Virus record (IMG/VR): IMGVR_UViG_3300025914_000009
Coordinates: 1-64,000 of that record
Reading direction: 5' to 3' (one strand)
Length of the DNA: 64,000 nt
From: a virus
The stretch's first letter is position 1; each line of letters starts with the position of its first letter. The notes under the pieces are model-generated. The model was not told where the DNA came from and ran no database searches. It was given only the letters and a program-made list of their open reading frames with translations. This document shows, one piece after another, positions 3,201 to 59,855 of this stretch. Made by a program: the position numbers and the translations under genes.

Positions 3201-6200
3201 GATCCAGCTTCCATAATCTTCTTACCAAACCAGTAAGGAAGCATTATCTCACAAGCCTGAGTCCCATTTTCCCCATGAGTATAGAATTTCAGACGATCTG
3301 AAGTATACACAGGTTTTCCATTAACAGTTCTTTTTACCACCCTTGGGGCAGTTTCCATCCCTGTTACTGAAAGCATCGTCTTTTGACCTCCATTTACTTT
3401 AGGTCTGGTAATTGTCTTCTCTAGAATAGAGTAGATAATAGCACGGATCTTAGTATACTGAGGGTTAGCTTCGATAGGATTTGAGAAGTCTCTGGTTTCT
3501 GGAGAGATCTGAATAGCACTAGCTATATTTCTTGGCAGCTCTCTTCTTTCAAGTTCAGAAAGAATGAAGTCAGAAATCATCTTCTTGTCAGGTATTGTAA
3601 CACCTTCATCTCCAGATTCCATACCCAATCTTCTCATTGCCATAGTAGTTCTCACAGTTGTAAGATTTACCAGAGCATCATTATGTCTCTGTACCTTGCT
3701 ATAGATAGGAGAAGCAGCCATCTTTTGCTCTTTATCCAGACTGTTCCATGCCGCAAAAGCATCTTCTGCTGATCCATAAGCTTTTCCAAAGTCTATAGGA
3801 ACCCCATTTTCCATAAGGTCACCAATAGCTATTTTTCTCAGCTGAGACCCTTCAGTCTGACCTTTATCCTTCTTTGATTGCTCTACCTGAACTCCGATCT
3901 GCTTAAGGGGGATCATTTCAGGTTCCATAGTATCAAAAGCAGTACTATTCAGATCACCATTTTCTGCATAAAGACTAAATGAAGAAGCTTTCTGTATACC
4001 TACTTTATGAGCAGATTCCATTCTCACGTAGTCAATACCTCTTTTCTGCATTGCATCATAGAGCTTTCCAAGGTTCGATCCCTTATACCAGCGATAGAAT
4101 AAAGGTGCCCACGAGGCTTTATCCAGAGATACAATAGCTACATCATCCTTAGTCTGAATACCTGAGTGCATTAGCTTCAGAATAGGGAAAGCTACATCAG
4201 TATTTGGCTCTTCCTTTAATAAAGCCTCGTCATGTCTTCTTAACTCTTCTGAACTGTAAGTATACTTACCTTCTCTGGCTTTATCATTTCTTTCCCATGC
4301 CATTTCCCACTGGAACTGCTTTTCCTGAGCCTTTGTCCATCTACCTCCAGATTTCCACATCATTTCTCTATATGCCTGGATGCTCATATAGGCACCAGCA
4401 TCATCCTCATTACCTTCGGTGTATGGAGTAGCTCTATCTCCTAGTACTTCTCTAAGAGCATCTATTTCATTACTCTCATAAATTACATCATATGCAGTTA
4501 TTGTATTGAAATGATTCTTATGAGACTGATATCCAGGATCCCCAAGGGAAAGTTGAATATTACCAGCTTTATTAAGCTCACTATTAGCCCACTGATTGAA
4601 CCCTTCTGAGGTTCCTAAAGTGTCCACATGGGTATATTCCCTTCCTGATAGGAAGGATTTGATACGCTTTAATTCATCTTTGTACTGAGCAGGGTCTCCA
4701 AAGAAGAATTTATGCATTTCAATATTGTTCATCACATAGTTCATCTCTCTGAAAAGAAGTAATCTCTCCAGCTCAGTTCTTGAATAGTCATAGCTCTTAC
4801 CTAAAGTATTGTTTACTACTGTCTTATCAAATCCAAATAGAATAAATCTGTTCTCTGCAGTTGGGTGTATAACTCTCCAGTCGATAAGTTCATTGATAGT
4901 ATCCTGAACTTTCATTTCAGCATATTCTCTCATGTAAGCTCTCATCTGATCTGAACTTACAACATTACCCAGAGGTTCATTTCCATCAATCACTCTTCTA
5001 TTGATATCATCTACAATATCTTGTCTACCAATGCTTTGGAAGATATCTTTGAAAAATCTTAGAGACTTACCTACCACTCTATCTTCTCCTTTGGGTTTTC
5101 TATTAAGAGCATCTATGAACTTTCTATTTTCATAGTCTCTAGCCAGATCTACTTCTGTTTGAAGCCATTTATACATTTGTGACCCAAATGCAGTAACTTC
5201 ATTAGATCTTGTAGAGTCATCTCCAAAGAAACCATCAGCAGAAAGATAAGTGCCGAGGCGGAGAGCCCATTCAGTCTTAGCATCAGCAGGAAGTAAGGTA
5301 TAAAATACTCCATTCAAGTTATTGTTTATCTCATATAGCAGTCTTTCTGCTTGAGTCAGTTTTGAGGTTGAGGTGTTATTTCCATCCCAAGTTTCCCTAC
5401 CTTCAACCACACCTACCTGTACCTCTTTATTCCTATTCCCTTGGGGGTCAAAGATAATCTTGGTAAGTAGTAAGGAATCTTTATGGAAGATATCATCAAA
5501 GTAGCCATTATCTTGTCTACTGATGAAGTCATCTCTGTCATCAGCATTGTTTGCATCATTAACCATTGTTGACACAAAATTGTTCAGCACGAAGTTAGTT
5601 GTTGGCTGATTATCCAGGTTAGGGTGTTGAGATTGAGTATCTTCTCCTACCATATCATGGATATACATATTAGCTAACTTCTTAAGTCTTGTGCTAAAGT
5701 CCAGCTGCTTAGAAGATATTATAGGAACAGAAATGTTGTTATTAGCGGATCTATTAACTAGTGCTCGTATGCTATTTACTTCATCATTAAAGTTCGTTAG
5801 TTTAGATCCTGTGAGCTTCCTATAATCATCACGAGTTATATCAATACCAAGTCTGTTAAGAAAGTCTATATTATCCTTAACATTTACTATTGATTTTGAG
5901 AACAAGAATCTATTCTCTGCAGATGGTCTTACTGCAGAAGAACCCTTCACTCCAGCTACCCAAGTTGTAATAACCTGATCGACCTTTGAGTTTAACACTG
6001 TAGTATCAAAGTATGTATTCCTTTGATAGTCAGTGAATTGTCTGAAAAATGATGGTTTTTGCTTTGTTAAAGCATTCTCCCCTGAAAGGACTAGCCTAAC
6101 ATCAGCCTGAGTTTTCCCTTCAAATCCACTATCAAACTTCAACCTGCTCATCAGCTTTCTTACATTAGCATCAATGAGCTTTCTGGTAAGTGGATCCTCA

Positions 6201-45992: not shown

Positions 45993-46290
45993 CTTCCAGT
46001 TTTTTGATTATTTCTAACTCTTCTTCCTGAGTCATGTGAGCTTTCCATTTCCCCAAGGGGCATTCCTGAGATAGGGCTCTGGTCTTAAGATGTAGGTCAC
46101 AACCACATACTGTGCAGTGAAAATCTGGTCTGAAGGTCTTATAATTATTGATCTCTTTCTGAGCCTCAGAGTTTAGAAGGCAATGATTTCTGCATATATC
46201 CTCTCTCTGATTAGCCACATCTTCTATCTCCTTCTTAACGAAAATGGAGTTCCAGGTTCCTTCTAATATTCCTTTAAGACTTATTTTCAT
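45970..46290 (-). CDS. Cys-rich putative Zn-binding protein
   Basis: REDICRNHC...CTVCGC...KTR...CPLGKW. Confidence 0.7.
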   Translation of the reverse strand: MKISLKGILEGTWNSIFVKKEIEDVANQREDICRNHCLLNSEAQKEINNYKTFRPDFHCTVCGCDLHLKTRALSQECPLGKWKAHMTQEEELEIIKKLEDESSQAK

Positions 46291-46648
46291 ATCCTCCCTT
46301 TTTGGTTTTCATATAGGCAACTGTGGCCTTGAGCTTTTCCATCATGTTATTCCAAGTCTCCATATTCCTGATTTCCTCAGGTCTATCTTTAAGCTTAGCT
46401 TCCATATTGAAGATAAGTATTTCCAACTTCTGTATCTTCCTTCTAATCTTATTAGGAGAGGTCATGAACTTTCCAAATCCTGAGATCTCTACCTGTTCAT
46501 GATCTACCATTGCATCTCTTGCATCTTTAAACTGAAACATAATAACTTTCTCTACTATGTCTTCAGGAACTAAGGTCTTTATAGCAGTCCTTGTTATAAG
46601 AACACCTTTCAACTTGTCAGCATCTATACTACTCTGATTCTTTTGCAC
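46274..46648 (-). CDS. HU/IHF-like protein
   Basis: EDIVEKVI...QVEISGFGKF HU signature. Confidence 0.7.
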   Translation of the reverse strand: MQKNQSSIDADKLKGVLITRTAIKTLVPEDIVEKVIMFQFKDARDAMVDHEQVEISGFGKFMTSPNKIRRKIQKLEILIFNMEAKLKDRPEEIRNMETWNNMMEKLKATVAYMKTKKGGYENKS

Positions 46649-46988
46649 TTCCTGCCAGGTTTATTTGTAACTGAATATCTTTTGAAAAGTCAAGAGCAAT
46701 CTTTGGATTCACTCTATATTTCATATCTATCTGTACAAGAAAGCCAGCCTTCACAAGTTCCTGCTTCATATTCTCCAGAGATGCAAGTGAGCTATTAAAC
46801 ATCTCAACAAACTCCTTTCTAGCCGCAGGGGATGTTATGCTCCCTCGGGCAGCTGTGAATGCCAGGAGGTATAGCTGCTTTTGTGGAAGTCTTACTTCAT
46901 TCAGAGCAAGCAGTACAGAATAATACTTTATTGCCTTTTCCACCTCAGTAGCTACCTCTCTTCGTATTTTCTGCACAATTACCTTCAT
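46629..46988 (-). CDS. Winged-helix (RepL-like) DNA-binding protein
   Basis: RKEFVEMFNSSLASLENMKQELVKAGFL...YRVNPKI. Confidence 0.65.
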   Translation of the reverse strand: MKVIVQKIRREVATEVEKAIKYYSVLLALNEVRLPQKQLYLLAFTAARGSITSPAARKEFVEMFNSSLASLENMKQELVKAGFLVQIDMKYRVNPKIALDFSKDIQLQINLAGSAKESE

Positions 46989-47007
46989 GTAGCTTGGTTT
47001 TCTTTTA

Positions 47008-47015
47008 CAAAGTTA
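47008..47015 (-). promoter_or_regulatory. -7 box of the promoter for the packaging operon
   Basis: TAACTTTG about 20 nt upstream of ATG 46988; no clear -33. Confidence 0.5.
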
Positions 47016-47062
47016 TGGGCTTTTTTGGAAGTAATATATAACTCTTTGGGATGTAATGCTAT

Positions 47063-47094
47063 AAAAAGCAAAAATCCTCCCAATATGAGAGGAT
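47063..47094 (-). terminator. Terminator closing the tRNA array
   Basis: ATCCTCTCA-TAT-TGGGAGGAT-TTTTGCTTTTT. Confidence 0.8.
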
Positions 47095-47098
47095 CTTG

Positions 47099-47170
47099 AG
47101 GCAGATATCTGAATCGAACAGATGTATAGGGCTTTTGCAGAACCCGACCTTTCCACTTGGCTAATCTGCC
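47099..47170 (-). tRNA. tRNA-Cys(GCA)
   Basis: Cloverleaf; anticodon loop CTGCAAA; U73. Confidence 0.9.
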
Positions 47171-47175
47171 TTATG

Positions 47176-47247
47176 CACGTATCGGGGGAATCGAACCCAG
47201 TCCTCCTACAGTTTTGGAGACTGCTTGGCCACCATGGCCTGACACGT
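47176..47247 (-). tRNA. tRNA-Trp(CCA)
   Basis: Loop CTCCAAA; G73; weak T-stem. Confidence 0.85.
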
Positions 47248-47253
47248 GTGTAG

Positions 47254-47324
47254 ACTACCCTGCAAGATTCGAACTTGCGTTCTAACATCCGTAGTGTTGA
47301 GTCCTTCCACTGAACGAAGGGTAG
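47254..47324 (-). tRNA. tRNA-Arg(ACG)
   Basis: Loop CTACGGA; T-loop TTCGAAT. Confidence 0.9.
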
Positions 47325-47397
47325 TGGGGTGGAGTGCAGAGTCGAACTGCCTTACCTGGTTCACAGCCAAGTCCATTCACCGAATTGGTATCTCCAC
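47325..47397 (-). tRNA. tRNA-His(GTG), encoded CCA, atypical acceptor/T junction
   Basis: Loop CTGTGAA; C73-CCA. Confidence 0.8.
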
Positions 47398-47399
47398 AG

Positions 47400-47471
47400 A
47401 TGCCCCTGGAGGAATCGAACCTACCATCATGAGATCCAAAAGCTCACGCCCTTCCATTGTGCTAAGGGGCA
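47400..47471 (-). tRNA. tRNA-Gln(TTG)
   Basis: Loop TTTTGGA; U1-A72; 31-39 mismatch. Confidence 0.85.
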
Positions 47472-47482
47472 TTAAAAAAATG

Positions 47483-47554
47483 TGGTACAGAGTGGACTTG
47501 AACCACCAACGCCCAGCTCTTCAGGCTGGCGCTCTACATTGGAGCTACTGCACC
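47483..47554 (-). tRNA. tRNA-Phe(GAA)
   Basis: CCAGC-CTGAAGA-GCTGG. Confidence 0.9.
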
Positions 47555-47559
47555 ATATG

Positions 47560-47631
47560 AGCCTGAGCAGGAACTCGAATCCTGTTCTGATGCTTACAAG
47601 GCAACTGCACCACCATCAGTGCTTCTCAGGC
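47560..47631 (-). tRNA. tRNA-Thr(TGT)
   Basis: Loop CTTGTAA; GCC acceptor start. Confidence 0.88.
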
Positions 47632-47636
47632 TTATG

Positions 47637-47712
47637 TTGGGTGAATAGGATTCGAACCTACGCTTTCAGCCTCCCAAAGGCTGCCGGAAAAACCTGGCTT
47701 CCGTACCACCCA
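47637..47712 (-). tRNA. tRNA-Pro(TGG)
   Basis: CAGCC-TTTGGGA-GGCTG; A73. Confidence 0.9.
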
Positions 47713-47716
47713 ATAT

Positions 47717-47752
47717 AAAAGAAAAACCCCCAGTCTTGGTAGAAAGGGGGTT
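47717..47752 (-). terminator. Attenuator terminator of tRNA operon A
   Basis: AACCCCC...GGGGGTT plus TTTCTTTT, 4 nt before tRNA-Pro; 5' arm complementary to the leader ORF. Confidence 0.8.
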
Positions 47753-47773
47753 GACATGCAAGAGCTTTATATC

Positions 47774-47848
47774 CTATACATACATGACAACTCCCTTCCC
47801 TGGTTGAGGGCAGAAGGTAAACCACGTATGACGAAATACTTTATTCAT
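47774..47848 (-). CDS. Leader peptide A, MNKVFRHTWFTFCPQPGKGVVMYV
   Basis: 25 codons between promoter and terminator; codons 5-16 match the 8 downstream tRNAs. Confidence 0.85.
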   Translation of the reverse strand: MNKVFRHTWFTFCPQPGKGVVMYV

Positions 47849-47852
47849 AATG

Positions 47853-47884
47853 CAAATATATGGTGAATATTTTAATCCACCAAA
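47853..47884 (-). promoter_or_regulatory. Promoter of tRNA operon A
   Basis: TTTG-N20-TATATTTG, full Bacteroidota consensus. Confidence 0.85.
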
Positions 47885-47890
47885 AAAAAG

Positions 47891-47975
47891 TTGCACAGGT
47901 CAGATTCGAACTGACAAAGGCTAAAGCCCCGAGTTTTACAGACTCAGAAGGATCTCCCACTCCTGTCGCAGTGCA
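47891..47975 (-). tRNA. tRNA-Tyr(GTA)
   Basis: Loop CTGTAAA; long variable arm; A73. Confidence 0.85.
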
Positions 47976-47982
47976 ATGTAAG

Positions 47983-48065
47983 AGGAGAGCAGTGGCCCTG
48001 ATCCACATCCCCGAGGGAACAGTCAGCTTAGCAGGCTGCTCCTACATCGTGTAGGTTTACTCTCC
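47983..48065 (-). tRNA. tRNA-Ser(GCT), non-canonical T-loop
   Basis: GGAGAG acceptor; loop CTGCTAA; variable arm; T-loop ATCAGGG. Confidence 0.78.
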
Positions 48066-48072
48066 TTATAAG

Positions 48073-48165
48073 AGGAAGGCTGAGGACTCGAACCCCACTC
48101 CTGCTCATCGCCGAGCCCTAGTTTTCAAGACTAGTCGCCGCTCCTGTGCAGCTGCATAACCTTCC
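48073..48165 (-). tRNA. tRNA-Ser(TGA)
   Basis: CTAGT-CTTGAAA-ACTAG; long variable arm. Confidence 0.9.
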
Positions 48166-48171
48166 TTATAG

Positions 48172-48245
48172 TATCCCTGGTAGGACTTGAACCTACAGAA
48201 CTCAGATTTTAAGTCTGATATGGTTACCTATTACATCACAGGGAT
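48172..48245 (-). tRNA. tRNA-Leu(TAA), short variable loop
   Basis: TCAGA-CTTAAAA-TCTGA; A73. Confidence 0.85.
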
Positions 48246-48250
48246 AAGTG

Positions 48251-48323
48251 TACCGAGGATGGGATTCGAACCCACACTTTTCAGTTCCTAAGACTGTTGC
48301 CTCTCCCGTTGGGCTACCAAGGT
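48251..48323 (-). tRNA. tRNA-Leu(TAG), short variable loop
   Basis: Loop CTTAGGA; A73; two acceptor mismatches. Confidence 0.82.
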
Positions 48324-48327
48324 ATGT

Positions 48328-48362
48328 AAAACAAAAAACCCAGCTGTAGAAACAGACTGGGC
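48328..48362 (-). terminator. Attenuator terminator of tRNA operon B
   Basis: GCCCAG(T)CTGT-TTCT-ACAGCTGGGT plus TTTTTGTTTT. Confidence 0.85.
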
Positions 48363-48385
48363 TAAAAAATAAAGTCTAATGAACT

Positions 48386-48454
48386 TTACATACTATACCC
48401 AGCCTGTCTGTGTAACAGGAGTGAACTGGAATAGTATGATAGAAGATTGAACAT
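48386..48454 (-). CDS. Leader peptide B, MFNLLSYYSSSLLLHRQAGYSM
   Basis: 23 codons; codons 4-14 are all Leu/Ser/Tyr. Confidence 0.88.
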   Translation of the reverse strand: MFNLLSYYSSSLLLHRQAGYSM

Positions 48455-48458
48455 GATG

Positions 48459-48490
48459 CAAATGTAATAACTCTTTTTGAATTTTCCAAA
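48459..48490 (-). promoter_or_regulatory. Promoter of tRNA operon B
   Basis: TTTG-N20-TACATTTG. Confidence 0.85.
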
Positions 48491-48499
48491 TAATTCTAG

Positions 48500-48573
48500 T
48501 GGAGCTAAAGAGAATCGAACTCTTCTCAGGCTCCTTGCAAGGGAGCTTCGCCAGCCTTGGAACATGTAACCCC
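48500..48573 (-). tRNA. tRNA-Ala(TGC)
   Basis: Loop CTTGCAA; G3:U70; A73. Confidence 0.92.
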
Positions 48574-48679
48574 TAAATCTGAAGCATAACCTTTCTACCT
48601 TCTCTGTAAACAGCTTTATTACAGTTATGAAATTGTATACCAGTAGATTGTACATGCTCCAGAGGTTCTTTCAAACCAG

Positions 48680-48752
48680 TTGCCTGAGGTGGGATCGAAC
48701 CACCAGCCTTCTTCGTATCAGGAAGTTGCTCAGACCATTGAGCTACCAGGCA
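48680..48752 (-). tRNA. tRNA-Ile(GAT)
   Basis: Loop CTGATAC; A73. Confidence 0.9.
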
Positions 48753-48844
48753 ATTTGATATAGGGGAAGAGGTGGTTCTTACACAGCCCACCTTCAGAAG
48801 TGTGCTTCTTCCAGGTTTTCACCCTCCCCCACTATATCTTCTAG

Positions 48845-48918
48845 TTGTCCCTAAGGGAGTTGAACCCTTGATCTTCTCATTATGAGTGAGCTGCTCTGAC
48901 CACCTGAGCTAAGGGACG
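48845..48918 (-). tRNA. tRNA-Ile2(CAT), probable lysidine type reading ATA
   Basis: CCCTTAGCTCAG..GGTCAGAGCAG..ACTCATAAT resembles bacterial Ile2; C4-G69 and C5-G68. Confidence 0.75.
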
Positions 48919-48925
48919 ATTTGAG

Positions 48926-48998
48926 CCGAGAGTGGGGGATTCGAACCCCAACCTTCACCTTGACAGGGTGATACTGCAGCCATTACACCACACCCTCG
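48926..48998 (-). tRNA. tRNA-Asp(GTC)
   Basis: TCACC-CTGTCAA-GGTGA; G73. Confidence 0.9.
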
Positions 48999-49087
48999 GA
49001 TTAGCCACATGCCGGACAATTACTTGACTGCTGTTAGAAACCAGCTGGTTTCCATCTTTTTTGTCCGCATGTAGCTTTAATTATTTG

Positions 49088-49161
49088 TACTCCCAGTGGG
49101 AATTGAACCCTACATTTTTACCTTGAAAGGGTAATGTCCTTACCATTTAGACGATGGGAGC
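49088..49161 (-). tRNA. tRNA-Glu(TTC)
   Basis: TTACC-CTTTCAA-GGTAA. Confidence 0.9.
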
Positions 49162-49182
49162 ATAGCTCCTCACCCTCCTTTA

Positions 49183-49395
49183 TTACATTAGCCATCTTAT
49201 CAATAGTTTAGCCTCCATTACTGGAAGAAATTTCGCATCCTGTATGTCCCCCAGGGGAATGGAGAAATTAATGATTCCATCAATAGAACCTGTCCAAAGG
49301 TTAGTCATGTACAGCATCCTTTCTTTATCCACATACAAAAGCTCAGCCTTTGGATTTTTCTTATACAACTCCTTTTTAATTTCATTTAGTTCCAT
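49183..49395 (-). CDS. Hypothetical 70-aa protein inside tRNA operon C (start MELNEIKK)
   Basis: The track start overlaps tRNA-Gly; ATG 49395 lies just 3' of it. Confidence 0.75.
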   Translation of the reverse strand: MELNEIKKELYKKNPKAELLYVDKERMLYMTNLWTGSIDGIINFSIPLGDIQDAKFLPVMEAKLLIRWLM

Positions 49396-49396
49396 G

Positions 49397-49467
49397 AGCA
49401 CCAACAGGGAGTCGAACCCTGCTCTCAGGCTTGGAAGGCTAGTGCATTACCGAAATGCTTCTGGTGC
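49397..49467 (-). tRNA. tRNA-Gly(TCC)
   Basis: Loop CTTCCAA; U73. Confidence 0.88.
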
Positions 49468-49515
49468 ATAGAGGGGGACAGGTTATTTAATCCTTTAAGG
49501 GACTCCCCCAGACCC

Positions 49516-49593
49516 TGGTTGCGGGAGAGGGAATCGAACCCTCGTAGTTCAGCTTATGAGACTGAGCTGGCACCATCTCCAGTCTACCCCGCA
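49516..49593 (-). tRNA. tRNA-Met(CAT), fMet-like acceptor, encoded CCA
   Basis: TGCGGGG...TCCCGCAACCA; loop CTCATAA; lacks the three G-C anticodon-stem pairs. Confidence 0.85.
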
Positions 49594-49841
49594 ATCTTTA
49601 ATTGTTTCTTTTCCTCCTCTGTCAAATCATAATCCTCTTTTACCAAAGTCAAAATTAAGTTAAGTTCCTCAGCAAATCTAATTCTTCCTCTAAAGACTAT
49701 TTCATCAAACCTCTTATTTCTGATAGACACTATACTAAAATCATGAGAGTCATTTTTTAATATAGTTATCTGATAAGAATCATCATGAAACTGCCATGGC
49801 AACCTCTGCTCGAAACCTAGTTCTAACAAGTGCTCTTTCAT
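49584..49841 (-). CDS. Hypothetical 85-aa protein inside tRNA operon C
   Basis: ORF fills the Asn-Met spacer; its stop lies inside the tRNA-Met 5' end. Confidence 0.7.
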   Translation of the reverse strand: MKEHLLELGFEQRLPWQFHDDSYQITILKNDSHDFSIVSIRNKRFDEIVFRGRIRFAEELNLILTLVKEDYDLTEEEKKQLKIAG

Positions 49842-49842
49842 G

Positions 49843-49915
49843 AGGACAGTTTAGGGATCGAACCTAAGACCTAAGAGTTAACAGCTCTTTGCTACTGCCA
49901 CTGAGCTAACTGTCC
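49843..49915 (-). tRNA. tRNA-Asn(GTT)
   Basis: AAGAG-CTGTTAA-CTCTT. Confidence 0.9.
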
Positions 49916-49959
49916 ATTTCCAGTTTTGTACTCCACGCAGATACTGGTAAACTGACCTG

Positions 49960-50031
49960 AGGACTTACAAGGAATCCAACCTTGATAGCTTGCTTAGAAG
50001 GCAAGAGCTCTATGCATTGAGCTATAAGTCC
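49960..50031 (-). tRNA. tRNA-Arg(TCT)
   Basis: CTTGC-CTTCTAA-GCAAG; T-loop TTGGATT. Confidence 0.85.
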
Positions 50032-50034
50032 ATG

Positions 50035-50107
50035 TTGTCCCACTTAGAATCGAACTAAGGTCGCTAGTTTGTAAGACTAGAGCACTCAACCACTGTGCTA
50101 TAGGACA
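50035..50107 (-). tRNA. tRNA-Val(TAC)
   Basis: CTAGT-CTTACAA-ACTAG. Confidence 0.9.
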
Positions 50108-50113
50108 ATCTTG

Positions 50114-50185
50114 TTCCCCTGGAAGGGCTCGAACCTTCAACCTTCTCCTTAAGAGGGAGTAGCTCTACCATTAAGCTACAGAGGA
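50114..50185 (-). tRNA. tRNA-Lys(CTT)
   Basis: Loop CTCTTAA. Confidence 0.9.
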
Positions 50186-50197
50186 ATTTTATCTCTG

Positions 50198-50268
50198 TAC
50201 CCCCACCAAGGATCGAACTTGGTTCCACTGGTTAAAAGCCAGTTACTTCACCATAAAGCTTTGAGGGT
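50198..50268 (-). tRNA. tRNA-Lys(TTT)
   Basis: ACTGG-CTTTTAA-CCAGT. Confidence 0.9.
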
Positions 50269-50274
50269 AATTGT

Positions 50275-50311
50275 AAACAAAAATCCCCAGAGCTTATGGG
50301 CTCCAGGGACT
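50275..50311 (-). terminator. Attenuator terminator of tRNA operon C
   Basis: GTCCCTGGAGC-CCATAA-GCTCTGGGGAT plus TTTTGTTT. Confidence 0.88.
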
Positions 50312-50334
50312 CTTGTTTGCTGTTTATAAACCTG

Positions 50335-50415
50335 TTAATTAGCAGACAGTGGAATCCCTGGAGCAGATTTCTCTGCACCTCTTACAATCCCATTATCCAC
50401 TATTGAGTAAAACAT
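50335..50415 (-). CDS. Leader peptide C, MFYSIVDNGIVRGAEKSAPGIPLSAN
   Basis: 27 codons; codons 5-16 match the downstream tRNAs; A-rich 5' UTR. Confidence 0.85.
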   Translation of the reverse strand: MFYSIVDNGIVRGAEKSAPGIPLSAN

Positions 50416-50438
50416 TGTTTGCTTTTTTAAGATTTTAG

Positions 50439-50470
50439 CAAATATAATACCACTTTTTGACATGGCCAAA
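50439..50470 (-). promoter_or_regulatory. Promoter of tRNA operon C
   Basis: TTTG-N20-TATATTTG. Confidence 0.85.
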
Positions 50471-50478
50471 TAATTCCA

Positions 50479-50898
50479 CTACTTTTTTTCTCCTAGCTCC
50501 CCTGGGGAAGATAGCTGATTAGAGTCACAAATTATACCCAGGACTGGCTGACCTATCTTCCCTGAACTCTGCCTCTTCTCCATAAACTCATCCAGCTTAG
50601 CTTCAAACTTCTTCCTTGGCCAGGTACACACAAACTCTCCATACATATCACTGACCACAATAGTCAGATCAAATCCTCCTTCAGCTACCTCCTCTACCTT
50701 CCTCTCTCTGGAAAATCCATCATGCCACATAAGCTTATGAAGATCTCTGGCAGGTATCCTAACCCAACCAGTAATCCAATCTATTGGCACAGGCTCCTCA
50801 GTAGTATCTTTATCTTCCTGTTCCATAGCCTTCTTAACAGAGAATCCATCATATATCTTCATAGGAAAGCTAAAGAACTCTTCAGTGAATTTACCCAT
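50479..50898 (-). CDS. Hypothetical 139-aa protein, weak LytTR/FlbD-like pattern
   Basis: ORF track; own promoter; VRIPARDL...LTIVVSDMYGEFVCTWPRKKFEAKL. Confidence 0.65.
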   Translation of the reverse strand: MGKFTEEFFSFPMKIYDGFSVKKAMEQEDKDTTEEPVPIDWITGWVRIPARDLHKLMWHDGFSRERKVEEVAEGGFDLTIVVSDMYGEFVCTWPRKKFEAKLDEFMEKRQSSGKIGQPVLGIICDSNQLSSPGELGEKK

Positions 50899-50913
50899 AC
50901 TTTATATTTTATT

Positions 50914-50945
50914 CAAAGGTAATACGTTATAGTGGAATTTCCAAA
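50914..50945 (-). promoter_or_regulatory. Promoter with ACTATAACGTA in its spacer
   Basis: TTTG-N20-TACCTTTG. Confidence 0.75.
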
Positions 50946-51771
50946 TGGTGAATAAGTGAGAGAGACCTGTCAGTACTTATAGTACTTGCCCCTGGGAGTA
51001 CTTGGAAGTTAATAGATTTGAGCCCCCTACTAACGGTAGGTATCAGAAAAACTCGGGGTTTTGTCTCATAGGCTTTTTATATAACCTATTGATATATAAT
51101 TACTTAATCCCAATATCTTCGGTTAACCATGTTTTAAAACTTATGTATATCTATGAGTATGATGGTGACACCATCCCTTGACCCCTTGGCAAAATCGTCG
51201 TGCTGGGGGTATCCCCCCATGACCCCTTGGGGAAAGTGCGATTCAGATTATGTCACATCGCCTTGAAAATCAAGGATTTATGTTTTAAGGAGTCGAACCA
51301 AAGCCAGAGGTTGGGAACCAGTAGTACCAATACAGCGTGAGGAAAGCTCCTTATACATATATATAATGGTATAACCCTAAAACCCCATCAACATGGTACT
51401 AACAGCAGTCATAACAACAGCTTTAATAGTCTCTGCATTCATTTGGAACCACAAGATGAACAGAGCTAAGTGATTGATACACAATGAATTGGGACGGTCA
51501 GAGAGAGTTTGAGTACACTTTACAACTCATAACTCTCTCATTTTCTATTACTTAGTTAACCTGATGAGGAATAGTATACATTATGGCATTTATTACACCA
51601 CTACATATATGTTATCTACTATATTCCCTTAGGGAGGATATAGATAACCTTTTAGAGCTCAATATTAAAATGGTCTTCAAGCAGGGCTAAAATACTGTGA
51701 ATACTACAGAAAACAGTAGTTAGTTGACCTATTTTCGAATTAAATTTCTTCAACAATAAAACATCAAGACA

Positions 51772-52326
51772 ATGGCAGACACAAACACACAAACAACTGA
51801 ACAAGTTGCACAGCCAATGCAACAGGAGCCATCAGCTTTAGAAAGAGCTAAAATGGCTGACACAAGACAAGTTATTACTTTGGATGCTGAAGCAGCTTAT
51901 GATGAGCTTGAGCTATTTGGCACACAACCCGGTGAGTACAGAGAAGATTCACCAGTACAGGGTGAATACTGGAGATTTAAATTCAGAGGAGCAATTTGCA
52001 CTGTATCTCCTGAGTTTAAAGAGGCTTACGACAGTGGTAATCTGTTGAGCATTACAGCATCACCAACAGTATTTACAGTAACTAAAGCTGATCCTAACAA
52101 TGCTGGCAAGAAAATGGAGCAGGTTGGGTATGGTTACAGCCTGAGTTACAGCGATTTAGCCAAGAAACAGAAGGCACAAAAGGCTAAATTAGCTGCTAAA
52201 GAACTGGGCCTGAAAGCACAGGTACAGGAGCTTAAGATGGAGAAGAAGCTGGAGGCAATCAAAGCAGCTGATTTCAAAGTAGTGCTCACTGAAGATGAGA
52301 TGCAGGAGCTAATGGGAGCAATCTAA
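51772..52326 (+). CDS. Early hypothetical protein, 184 aa, coiled-coil C-terminus
   Basis: ORF track; A-rich 5' UTR; downstream hairpin plus T-tract. Confidence 0.8.
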   Translation: MADTNTQTTEQVAQPMQQEPSALERAKMADTRQVITLDAEAAYDELELFGTQPGEYREDSPVQGEYWRFKFRGAICTVSPEFKEAYDSGNLLSITASPTVFTVTKADPNNAGKKMEQVGYGYSLSYSDLAKKQKAQKAKLAAKELGLKAQVQELKMEKKLEAIKAADFKVVLTEDEMQELMGAI

Positions 52327-59590: not shown

Positions 59591-59663
59591 GGGTGTGTAG
59601 CTCAATGGATAGAGTGTCTGACTTCGGATCAGAAAGTTAAGGGTTCGAATCCCTTCATGCCCA
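59591..59663 (+). tRNA. tRNA-Arg(TCG)
   Basis: Canonical cloverleaf; TCTGA-CTTCGGA-TCAGA. Confidence 0.92.
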
Positions 59664-59855
59664 CAGGTTTTATGGCTAATGGTGTTTGATTAGTATTGCA
59701 AGAATTTAGCAATAATCAGTACTATTAAACGCGCCCTGAGTTTCTACTTGGGGCTCTTTTTTATTAACAAACTTAGTTTTTTTTTTAGAGCATATAATCG
59801 TTAGAGCCCTCTTGTGTCTACAGGAGGGCATTTTTAACCAAAAAAACCAAAAATT

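Follow-up and report, generated by a model that had tools for sequence, protein, structure and literature searches.

Candidate leader-peptide attenuators that match the tRNA genes they precede in a crAss-like phage

The stretch of DNA analysed here, which we call the window, is the first 64 kb (64,000 nucleotides) of the 124,983-bp virus record IMGVR_UViG_3300025914_000009 from IMG/VR. On its minus strand it carries an array of tRNA genes divided into three blocks, C, B and A, and each block is preceded by a unit of the same name that comprises a promoter-like motif, a short leader open reading frame (ORF) and a hairpin followed by a U-run. In our opinion, the most likely explanation of unit C, with a probability of about 0.72 given the comparative and in-silico evidence, is that it controls transcription by ribosome-mediated leader-peptide attenuation in response to a shortage of the tRNAs of its own block, and that units B and A act likewise. 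The codons of each leader are largely those read by the tRNAs encoded immediately downstream, and this correspondence is found also in distant phages, whose leaders have no sequence in common with those of the window.

Anatomy of unit C and its sister units

Unless stated otherwise, coordinates are those of the window and run along the minus strand; the features are collected in Table 1. Unit C presents, in order, the promoter-like motif, an ORF of 26 codons, the hairpin and U-run (50310-50275) and 12 tRNA genes. All parts of an attenuator are found in it, namely a promoter-proximal short ORF, clustered cognate codons, an intrinsic terminator, an antiterminator helix between regions 2 and 3 (2:3) and a hairpin between regions 1 and 2 (1:2) that covers the codons.

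The promoter-like motif conforms to TTTG/TAnnTTTG, described in PMC7366714 as the consensus of Bacteroidota primary-sigma (sigma-A) promoters. The pattern TTTGN{18,22}TANNTTTG occurs at five sites of the window, each of them on the minus strand, versus 1.6 expected, and none of 100 shuffles reached five. Three of the sites precede the leader ORFs, one precedes a 139-aa gene upstream of unit C, and the fifth lies at 28131-28102. The motif of unit C belongs to repeat family D3 and is kept in L004 and L013, two uncultured relatives of the window. The distance from its -7 box to the ATG of leader C is 23 nt, the motif being located by sequence and the transcription start being predicted.

Leader C extends from an ATG at 50415-50413 to a TAA at 50337-50335. 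A longer upstream reading frame of the leader is closed by a stop in L004, and several of the leader differences among the three relatives are synonymous (TAC/TAT, TCA/TCT, GGT/GGC, AAA/AAG and GCT/GCC). Its codons 5-16 (50403-50368) are ATA GTG GAT AAT GGG ATT GTA AGA GGT GCA GAG AAA. They had been described, in a preliminary description of this DNA made from the letters alone, as twelve different codons matched by the tRNAs downstream, and this is indeed the case, since every one of them is read by a tRNA of block C. The same description characterized the codons as purine-starting. All 12 tRNAs of block C do read codons starting with A or G; as an organizing rule the proposal fails, because the equivalent block of Leptolyngbya phage Lbo-JY46 includes tRNA-Cys (TGY) and because Thr and Ser(AGY) tRNAs occupy other blocks.

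The terminator of unit C, kept in L004 and L013, is a G+C-rich hairpin of 11 bp (about -17.5 kcal/mol) followed by TTTTTGTTT. Only 6 nt separate the U-run from tRNA-Lys, the first gene of the block. This leaves no space for another promoter, so that the block C tRNAs would be expressed only by read-through of the hairpin. It should be noted that a simple terminator scan detected none of the three attenuator hairpins; that of unit C was missed because its stem can extend into the U-run.

Units B and A contain the same set of parts, and the three units together precede all three blocks of the array. Unit B, with the leader run LLSYYSSSLLL, stands before Leu(tag), Leu(taa), Ser(tga), Ser(gct) and Tyr (48323-47890). 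Analogously, unit A, with the leader run FRHTWFTFCPQP, stands before Pro, Thr, Phe, Gln, His, Arg(acg), Trp and Cys (47712-47098).

Leader codons match the tRNAs of their own block

In the leaders of the window, uninterrupted runs of codons read by tRNAs of the own block span 12 (A), 11 (B) and 12 (C) codons and start at codon 4 or 5. If codons are drawn independently from phage usage, runs of this length have probabilities of 3.3e-7 (A), 6.6e-8 (B) and 9.2e-3 (C). Across 15 real genes, the longest runs are 8 codons for the A set, 5 for the B set and 16 for the C set. In a set of 662 short ORFs from the window, the run length is reached solely by the leader itself for A and for B; for C it is reached by three ORFs, two of which are leader C read from two start codons. 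The C run is less striking than those of A and B because the amino acids of block C account for 58% of codons. A 12-codon run of the block C set occurs in 198 of 12,748 windows taken from real genes, and a 12-codon stretch covering at least 10 of the 12 block C tRNAs in 19 of 12,928.

A fixed-position test considered codons 4-16 of three leaders in each of five genomes, with shuffled tRNA labels as the control. The number of own-block codons among the 39 positions was 35 in the window, 32 in L004, 35 in L013, 28 in Lbo-JY46 and 35 in Cellulophaga phage phi4:1. The label shuffles average about 13, and the observed number was reached by none of 20,000 shuffles in any genome; five alternative assignments of whole blocks to leaders score 1-17. 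Moreover, 107 of 110 block tRNAs in 14 units have a cognate codon in their own leader, and in phi4:1 this applies to all tRNAs of the three units (7/7, 10/10 and 6/6).

Such a match bears on whether the units would sense particular tRNAs or translation capacity in general. Translation-dependent attenuators responding to any slowing of the ribosome, as under host shut-off or stress that targets ribosomes, would share this architecture, which any stall would trigger, and a cyanobacterial tRNA array is reported to be induced under translational stress (PMC8421152). A general sensor, however, needs no block-specific codons, yet 28-35 of the 39 fixed positions in the five genomes are occupied by them, and the leader codons track tRNAs that have moved between blocks (see below). 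We therefore consider a general sensor unlikely.

Alternative RNA structures and a modelled switch

The 50480-50270 segment has a predicted folding energy of -66.1 kcal/mol (z = -4.64), and none of 200 shuffled sequences folds as well. Pairing of region 1 with region 2 is seen both in the fold of minimum free energy and in the consensus that RNAalifold gives for three sequences, with the stop codon of the leader at the apical end of region 2. The free RNA takes the form 1:2 plus 3:4, region 4 being the 3' arm of the terminator, in all 11 window-clade units and in the three-sequence consensus.

The antiterminator helix competes with the terminator. GCTCCAGGGATTC (50364-50352) pairs with GAGTCCCTGGAGC (50312-50300), a segment of the terminator, over 13 pairs, as originally proposed, and 12 of them are Watson-Crick and one is G-U. 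The distal extension proposed with it, TGTCTGCT/AGCAAACA, holds at seven of its eight positions, the eighth being a C-A mismatch. When three sequences are compared, 38 of the 39 cells of the 2:3 helix are paired and 3 of its 13 pairs are changed on both sides; slid controls give 26-65% pairing and zero to one double-changed pair. In the A units, the terminator stem varies between relatives and, judged by eye, an upstream segment resembling the 3' arm varies with it.

The effect of a ribosome on these structures was modelled by masking positions -15 to +12 around the first A-site base, codon by codon, and computing the equilibrium fold of the remaining RNA. The transcript was ended where the U-run begins, as the bases of the run lie within the polymerase hybrid at the moment of the decision to terminate. 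In this model the probability of the unit C terminator is 0-2% with the ribosome at codons 5-14, at least 93% at codons 15-26 and 96% in free RNA. The switch persists when the downstream edge of the footprint is varied from +9 to +15, and it appeared in none of 150 dinucleotide-shuffled leaders. By a uniform criterion of switching over at least three consecutive codons, 10 of 17 units switch. A test of whether region 3 would pair before region 4 is made did not tell the states apart.

These structures also bear on the idea of a T-box-like RNA that binds tRNA directly, without a ribosome, the codon run being a row of specifier codons. The run does offer a codon for almost all tRNAs of the block. 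In the free RNA, on the other hand, it is buried in the 1:2 helix and not displayed in a loop, and the start, stop and frame of the leader are conserved with synonymous changes. Searches against Rfam place the T-box and all other families below threshold: no T-box match was obtained at E <= 1 in 46000-52000 or at E <= 10 in 50260-50480, the best leader family was His_leader RF00514 (18.8 bits versus a threshold of 49, E = 0.48), and the only matches at E <= 1 in 46000-52000 were the tRNA clan (tRNA, tRNA-Sec and tmRNA) and Plastid-ycf2 opposite tRNA genes. Direct binding is, in our opinion, highly improbable.

Conservation in relatives and in distant phages

The array was found in five further sequences of the window clade (L004, L013, L015, L012 and L014). 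L004 is a viral contig whose terminase is 86% identical to that of the window; the aligned segments of its array DNA are 74-91% identical, most of them 75-83%. L013 is a contig from a metagenome, and L012 and L014 carry unit A only. Since units A and B of L015 do not differ from those of L013, the two are counted as one, giving four related uncultured sequences. Each leader of the clade keeps an own-block run of 9-14 codons beginning at codon 4 or 5. The C leaders differ among relatives mainly by synonymous changes, plus V/I/M swaps within the block, and the unit B peptides diverge in sequence while the composition of their run stays Leu/Ser/Tyr.

Lbo-JY46 (PP438436.1, L018 in our numbering) has a syntenic array with three units and the same promoter motif. 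Its C-type block contains tRNA-Cys(gca, U73) and a tRNA with the anticodon ACA, and its A-type block has no Cys tRNA. The leaders follow this difference: six Cys codons (five TGT and one TGC) are present in the C leader of Lbo-JY46 and none in its A leader, whereas in the window clade one to four are present in the A leaders (5/5) and none in the C leaders (0/3). The ACA-anticodon tRNA (L018 2168-2241), which would read TGT, stands in place of tRNA-Val(tac) of the window and adjoins tRNA-Cys(gca). A separate observation concerns the unit promoters of this phage (L018 1790-1830, 5350-5390 and 6080-6120), which are of the Bacteroidota type TTTG/TAnnTTTG in a record whose stated host is a cyanobacterium; either they are read by a phage factor or the host assignment merits a second look.

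Cellulophaga phage phi4:1 (NC_021788.1, L021), whose terminase is 26% identical, also has three units, and its blocks are quite different. The run QRLHLQELEQP is followed by Pro, Glu, Gln, His, Leu, Leu and Arg(acg); the run TKTGITVIDKTKGARA by Ala, Lys, Ile, Gly, CAT, Asp, Thr, Val, Arg(tct) and CAT; and the run NYCTYNNSNWSFSY by Tyr, Ser, Ser, Asn, Trp, Phe and an unusual tRNA whose loop is GCA-like. Compared with the window, the Thr, Leu, Glu, Asn, Phe and Trp tRNAs are in other blocks, and their codons are in the matching leaders. Phage phi17:2 was left out as an independent case because it is 99% identical to phi4:1 where aligned. Units 1 and 2 of phi4:1 have an identical promoter segment. 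The annotated gene gp075 of this phage (9393-9274, 39 aa) has a TTG start within the promoter motif and probably results from mis-calling the leader of tRNA unit 2.

The leaders of Lbo-JY46 and phi4:1 share no sequence with those of the window, and the codon-to-block rule alone is common to them. This observation speaks against the leader peptides being small proteins that act in trans and whose composition reflects that function. Trans roles have been reported for leader peptides, as for peTrpL, and leader C is well conserved among three relatives; the unit B peptides, on the other side, vary in sequence and keep their composition. We regard a trans-acting function as extremely improbable. 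For the broader group represented by the window phage, Lbo-JY46 and phi4:1, a self-tuning tRNA supply, in which blocks would be transcribed only when one of their own tRNAs is limiting, has somewhat better than even odds.

Further searches returned few sequences. With the 139-aa gene upstream of unit C as the query, no relatives were found in the viral collection; exact patterns derived from the tRNAs found nothing there beyond the contig of L004, and a six-protein alignment scan recovered that contig and, besides it, just a copy of L012. When the array DNA of the window and of Lbo-JY46 was compared with the phage collection, the matches were at the tRNA level only. Two sequences with terminases about 60% identical to that of the window (L006 and L007) had no tRNA array near the terminase; one has three tRNA matches (two inside L006 and one beyond) on the strand opposite the terminase. 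Another crAss-like phage, Kehishuvirus cr112_1 (MT774388.1, L003), resembles the window in having a large tRNA array at the same place in the genome, flanked by the divergent early region and the structural genes, and differs in having no unit of leader ORF and terminator in the nine inter-tRNA gaps examined. At about 6010-6060 of its minus strand, TAtcTTTG is followed by a mini-ORF, ATG ATT AGA AGA TAA, before tRNA-Gln and tRNA-Arg(tct); with four codons and no terminator seen, this may be a chance occurrence.

Proposed mechanism and its weighing

Attenuation by unit C would proceed as follows. Transcription would begin at the promoter-like motif, and a ribosome would start on the 26-codon leader. 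With all tRNAs for codons 5-16 plentiful and charged, the ribosome would pass over region 2; with no ribosome present, 1:2 would form. In either case region 3 would be free to pair with region 4, and the polymerase would be stopped just short of the first tRNA gene, 6 nt upstream. If any one of the sensed tRNAs is scarce, the ribosome would stall within codons 5-14 and occupy region 1. Region 2 could then pair with region 3, a flanking CAGAG/CUCUG helix would capture part of region 4, no terminator would form, and the block would be transcribed until the newly made tRNAs relieve the stall. Since a stall at any of these codons would open the block and the new tRNAs would end the stall, the unit would operate as a multi-input OR gate with negative feedback on its own products. 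Of this scheme, the sequence features, their conservation, the agreement of leader codons with block tRNAs and, in silico, the alternative helices are observed; leader translation, coupling of transcription to translation, termination and the physiological trigger are what we infer. The trigger could be a mismatch with host codon usage, or loss or cleavage of host tRNAs during infection.

An attenuator had already been proposed in the preliminary description. That design has gained support from the sister units, from conservation in relatives and from leader codons that follow block membership in Lbo-JY46 and phi4:1, as well as from the 1:2 hairpin, which the preliminary description did not include, and the modelled switch at codons 5-14.

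Several observations weigh against attenuation by unit C and its sisters. Taken alone, the codon evidence for unit C is modest: its run has P of about 0.009, and coverage of 11 of the 12 tRNAs by the whole ORF has P of about 0.15. The covariation in the 2:3 helix comes from three sequences and is equalled by 83 of 500 column shuffles; in the same sequences, double changes are absent from the 1:2 and 3:4 helices. Seven of the 17 units show no equilibrium switch (B_L004, B_L013, A_L013, A_L012, C_JY46 and units 1 and 2 of phi4:1). If the U-run is kept in the fold, the switch of unit C is only partial (41-49%, codons 10-11), and with the ribosome modelled exactly on the stop codon the terminator probability is 66%, a limit of the model in that pairs span the ribosome. 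The codon match has gaps as well. Leader C of the window has no AAG codon, although its block has Lys(ctt). The B leader of Lbo-JY46 retains TAT and AGT, and neither a Tyr nor a Ser(gct) tRNA was found in its block, which has a promoter and a 75-aa gene in their place; the C leader of the same phage has Val codons, and no Val tRNA was found. In L014, Cys codons are present and tRNA-Cys was not detected, and its Arg(acg) is without a CGN codon. Finally, the host, the polymerase reading the promoters and the coupling of transcription and translation are assumed.

Some of these points would suit ordinary leaky terminators, insulators or processing signals, with ORFs that are incidental or small protein genes and with constitutive tRNA output. 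Phage tRNA arrays often contain small ORFs, such as the two conserved genes in block C, one leader region of phi4:1 is annotated as gp075, and the modelled switch is absent from the seven units named above. Constitutive output leaves unexplained the runs with P of about 1e-7, the diagonal codon-to-block matrices, the constant placement of promoter, ORF, terminator and tRNA genes, and the fact that an upstream segment imitates the 3' arm of the terminator and changes together with it. We regard it as very unlikely.

Genome setting and other features of the array

The layout of the window matches that of a crAss-like phage. The minus strand carries an ORF of 4,107 aa and the structural genes, and divergent genes occupy the plus strand beyond about 51.7 kb. 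The terminase matches crAss-like, Cellulophaga and Flavobacterium phages, with Lbo-JY46 at the top (35% identity). Between the divergent gene sets, at 51160-51235, are two direct repeats of 35 nt that are 71% alike.

The array extends from 50268 to 47098. With default settings ARAGORN finds 21 tRNA genes in it; four more, namely Ala(tgc), Ser(tga), Ser(gct) and Trp(cca), come up under relaxed settings, for a total of 25 array genes that represent all 20 amino acids; Rfam gives tRNA-like matches for three of the four additions. Default settings yield 11 of the block C tRNAs, Ala(tgc) at 48573-48499 being found by the relaxed search only and tRNA-like in Rfam. The tRNAs of block B (Leu, Leu, Ser, Ser and Tyr) are exactly the class II set, the tRNAs with long variable arms. 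Two small protein genes lie among the block C tRNAs on the minus strand, at 49841-49584 (85 aa) and 49404-49183 (73 aa), and both are conserved in L004 (95 and 78 aa).

Block C has a pair of tRNAs with the anticodon CAT (48918-48844 and 49593-49516), one of which has an initiator-like C1-A72 mismatch and lacks the three G-C pairs of the anticodon stem. The tRNA at 49593-49516 has positions 1-3 and 7 of the acceptor stem as in tRNA-Ile(gat), and its CCA end is encoded; judging by its sequence, it is plausibly an Ile2 tRNA. A 12-bp hairpin with a T-run at 47097-47071, directly after the final tRNA (Cys), is probably the terminator that closes the array. One further tRNA gene, a solitary Arg(tcg), is found away from the array in the midst of the plus-strand genes (59591-59664, plus strand).

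Table 1. Positions of the attenuator units, their parts and selected tRNA genes in the window
Feature	Coordinates	Strand	Details
Promoter-like motif, unit C	50439..50470	minus	TTTG 50470-50467, 20-nt spacer, TAtaTTTG 50446-50439
Leader ORF C	50335..50415	minus	26 codons + TAA: MFYSIVDNGIVRGAEKSAPGIPLSAN
Sensor run, codons 5-16	50368..50403	minus	12 distinct codons, each with a block C tRNA
Region 1	50384..50402	minus	5' arm of the 1:2 hairpin, overlapping sensor codons
Region 2	50336..50364	minus	proximal 13 nt (50364-50352) and distal arm; partner is region 1 or region 3
Region 3	50300..50326	minus	antiterminator partner of region 2; its last 11 nt (50310-50300) form the terminator stem with region 4
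Region 4 and U-run	50275..50293	minus	3' terminator arm 50293-50283; U-run TTTTTGTTT 50283-50275
tRNA block C	48499..50268	minus	Lys(ttt), Lys(ctt), Val(tac), Arg(tct), Asn(gtt), CAT, Gly(tcc), Glu(ttc), Asp(gtc), CAT, Ile(gat), Ala(tgc)
Unit B	48328..48490	minus	promoter motif 48490-48459, leader 48454-48386 (MFNLLSYYSSSLLLHRQAGYSM), terminator 48362-48338 and U-run
Unit A	47717..47884	minus	promoter motif 47884-47853, leader 47848-47774 (MNKVFRHTWFTFCPQPGKGVVMYV), terminator 47751-47726 and U-run
tRNAs missed by default ARAGORN	48573-48499 (Ala tgc, G3:U70), 48165-48072 (Ser tga), 48065-47982 (Ser gct), 47247-47175 (Trp cca)	minus	

Biological significance

The design described here bears on how large phage tRNA arrays are controlled and on why phages carry them. 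It suggests on-demand tRNA synthesis that follows the decoding state of the infected cell, and it would tie carriage of tRNAs by phages to depletion of host tRNAs and to host defences that target tRNA. If the proposal is true, the units would be the first attenuators known to control tRNA genes, each a many-input OR gate with direct feedback by its products, and a trigger could be, for example, the loss of host tRNAs or their cutting by anticodon nucleases. Such a unit would be a compact natural sensor of up to a dozen tRNA species at once, reusable as a reporter of tRNA availability. The presence of the design in two cultured phages makes it directly testable. For annotation, short ORFs in tRNA arrays, such as gp075 of phi4:1, may be leaders rather than protein genes.

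Comparison with known systems

Leader-peptide attenuators are classically known from amino-acid operons (trpL, hisL, leuL, thrL and the multivalent ilvL), and ilvL and thrL sense more than one amino acid. The phage units resemble them in having a short ORF after the promoter, clustered regulatory codons, a choice between 1:2/3:4 and 2:3 pairing, and an intrinsic terminator before the controlled genes. In Escherichia coli, the pheST operon, with its pheM leader, places phenylalanyl-tRNA synthetase under leader-peptide attenuation; here too a component of the translation apparatus is controlled by the supply of cognate charged tRNA, whereas the product is a synthetase, a single amino acid is sensed and no tRNA genes are controlled.

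T-box riboswitches likewise sense the state of specific tRNAs, and they too choose between a terminator and an antiterminator ahead of genes related to translation. Unlike the phage units, which indicate a translated ORF, T-box RNAs bind tRNA without a ribosome and have a conserved T-box sequence. The long tRNA arrays of cyanobacteria are comparable in that expression of the whole array responds to translation trouble (PMC8421152). No leader-ORF mechanism is described in the main text of that paper, where the terms "attenuat", "leader", "terminator" and "uORF" do not occur. In literature covered largely at the level of titles and abstracts, no description of leader-peptide attenuators before tRNA genes was found.

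The units differ from the trp/his/ilv class in what they would control and in how they are read. Classical attenuators control biosynthetic enzymes and repeat the codons of one to three amino acids; the phage units stand before tRNA genes, and their sensors contain approximately one codon for each of 5-12 tRNAs. Moreover, the product of a phage unit would feed back directly on the sensor, and the element resides in a phage. The new elements relative to the classical systems are thus the tRNA-gene target, the provision of about one codon per block tRNA, the direct product feedback and the phage setting, by which leader-peptide attenuation would be extended from amino-acid enzymes to tRNA genes.

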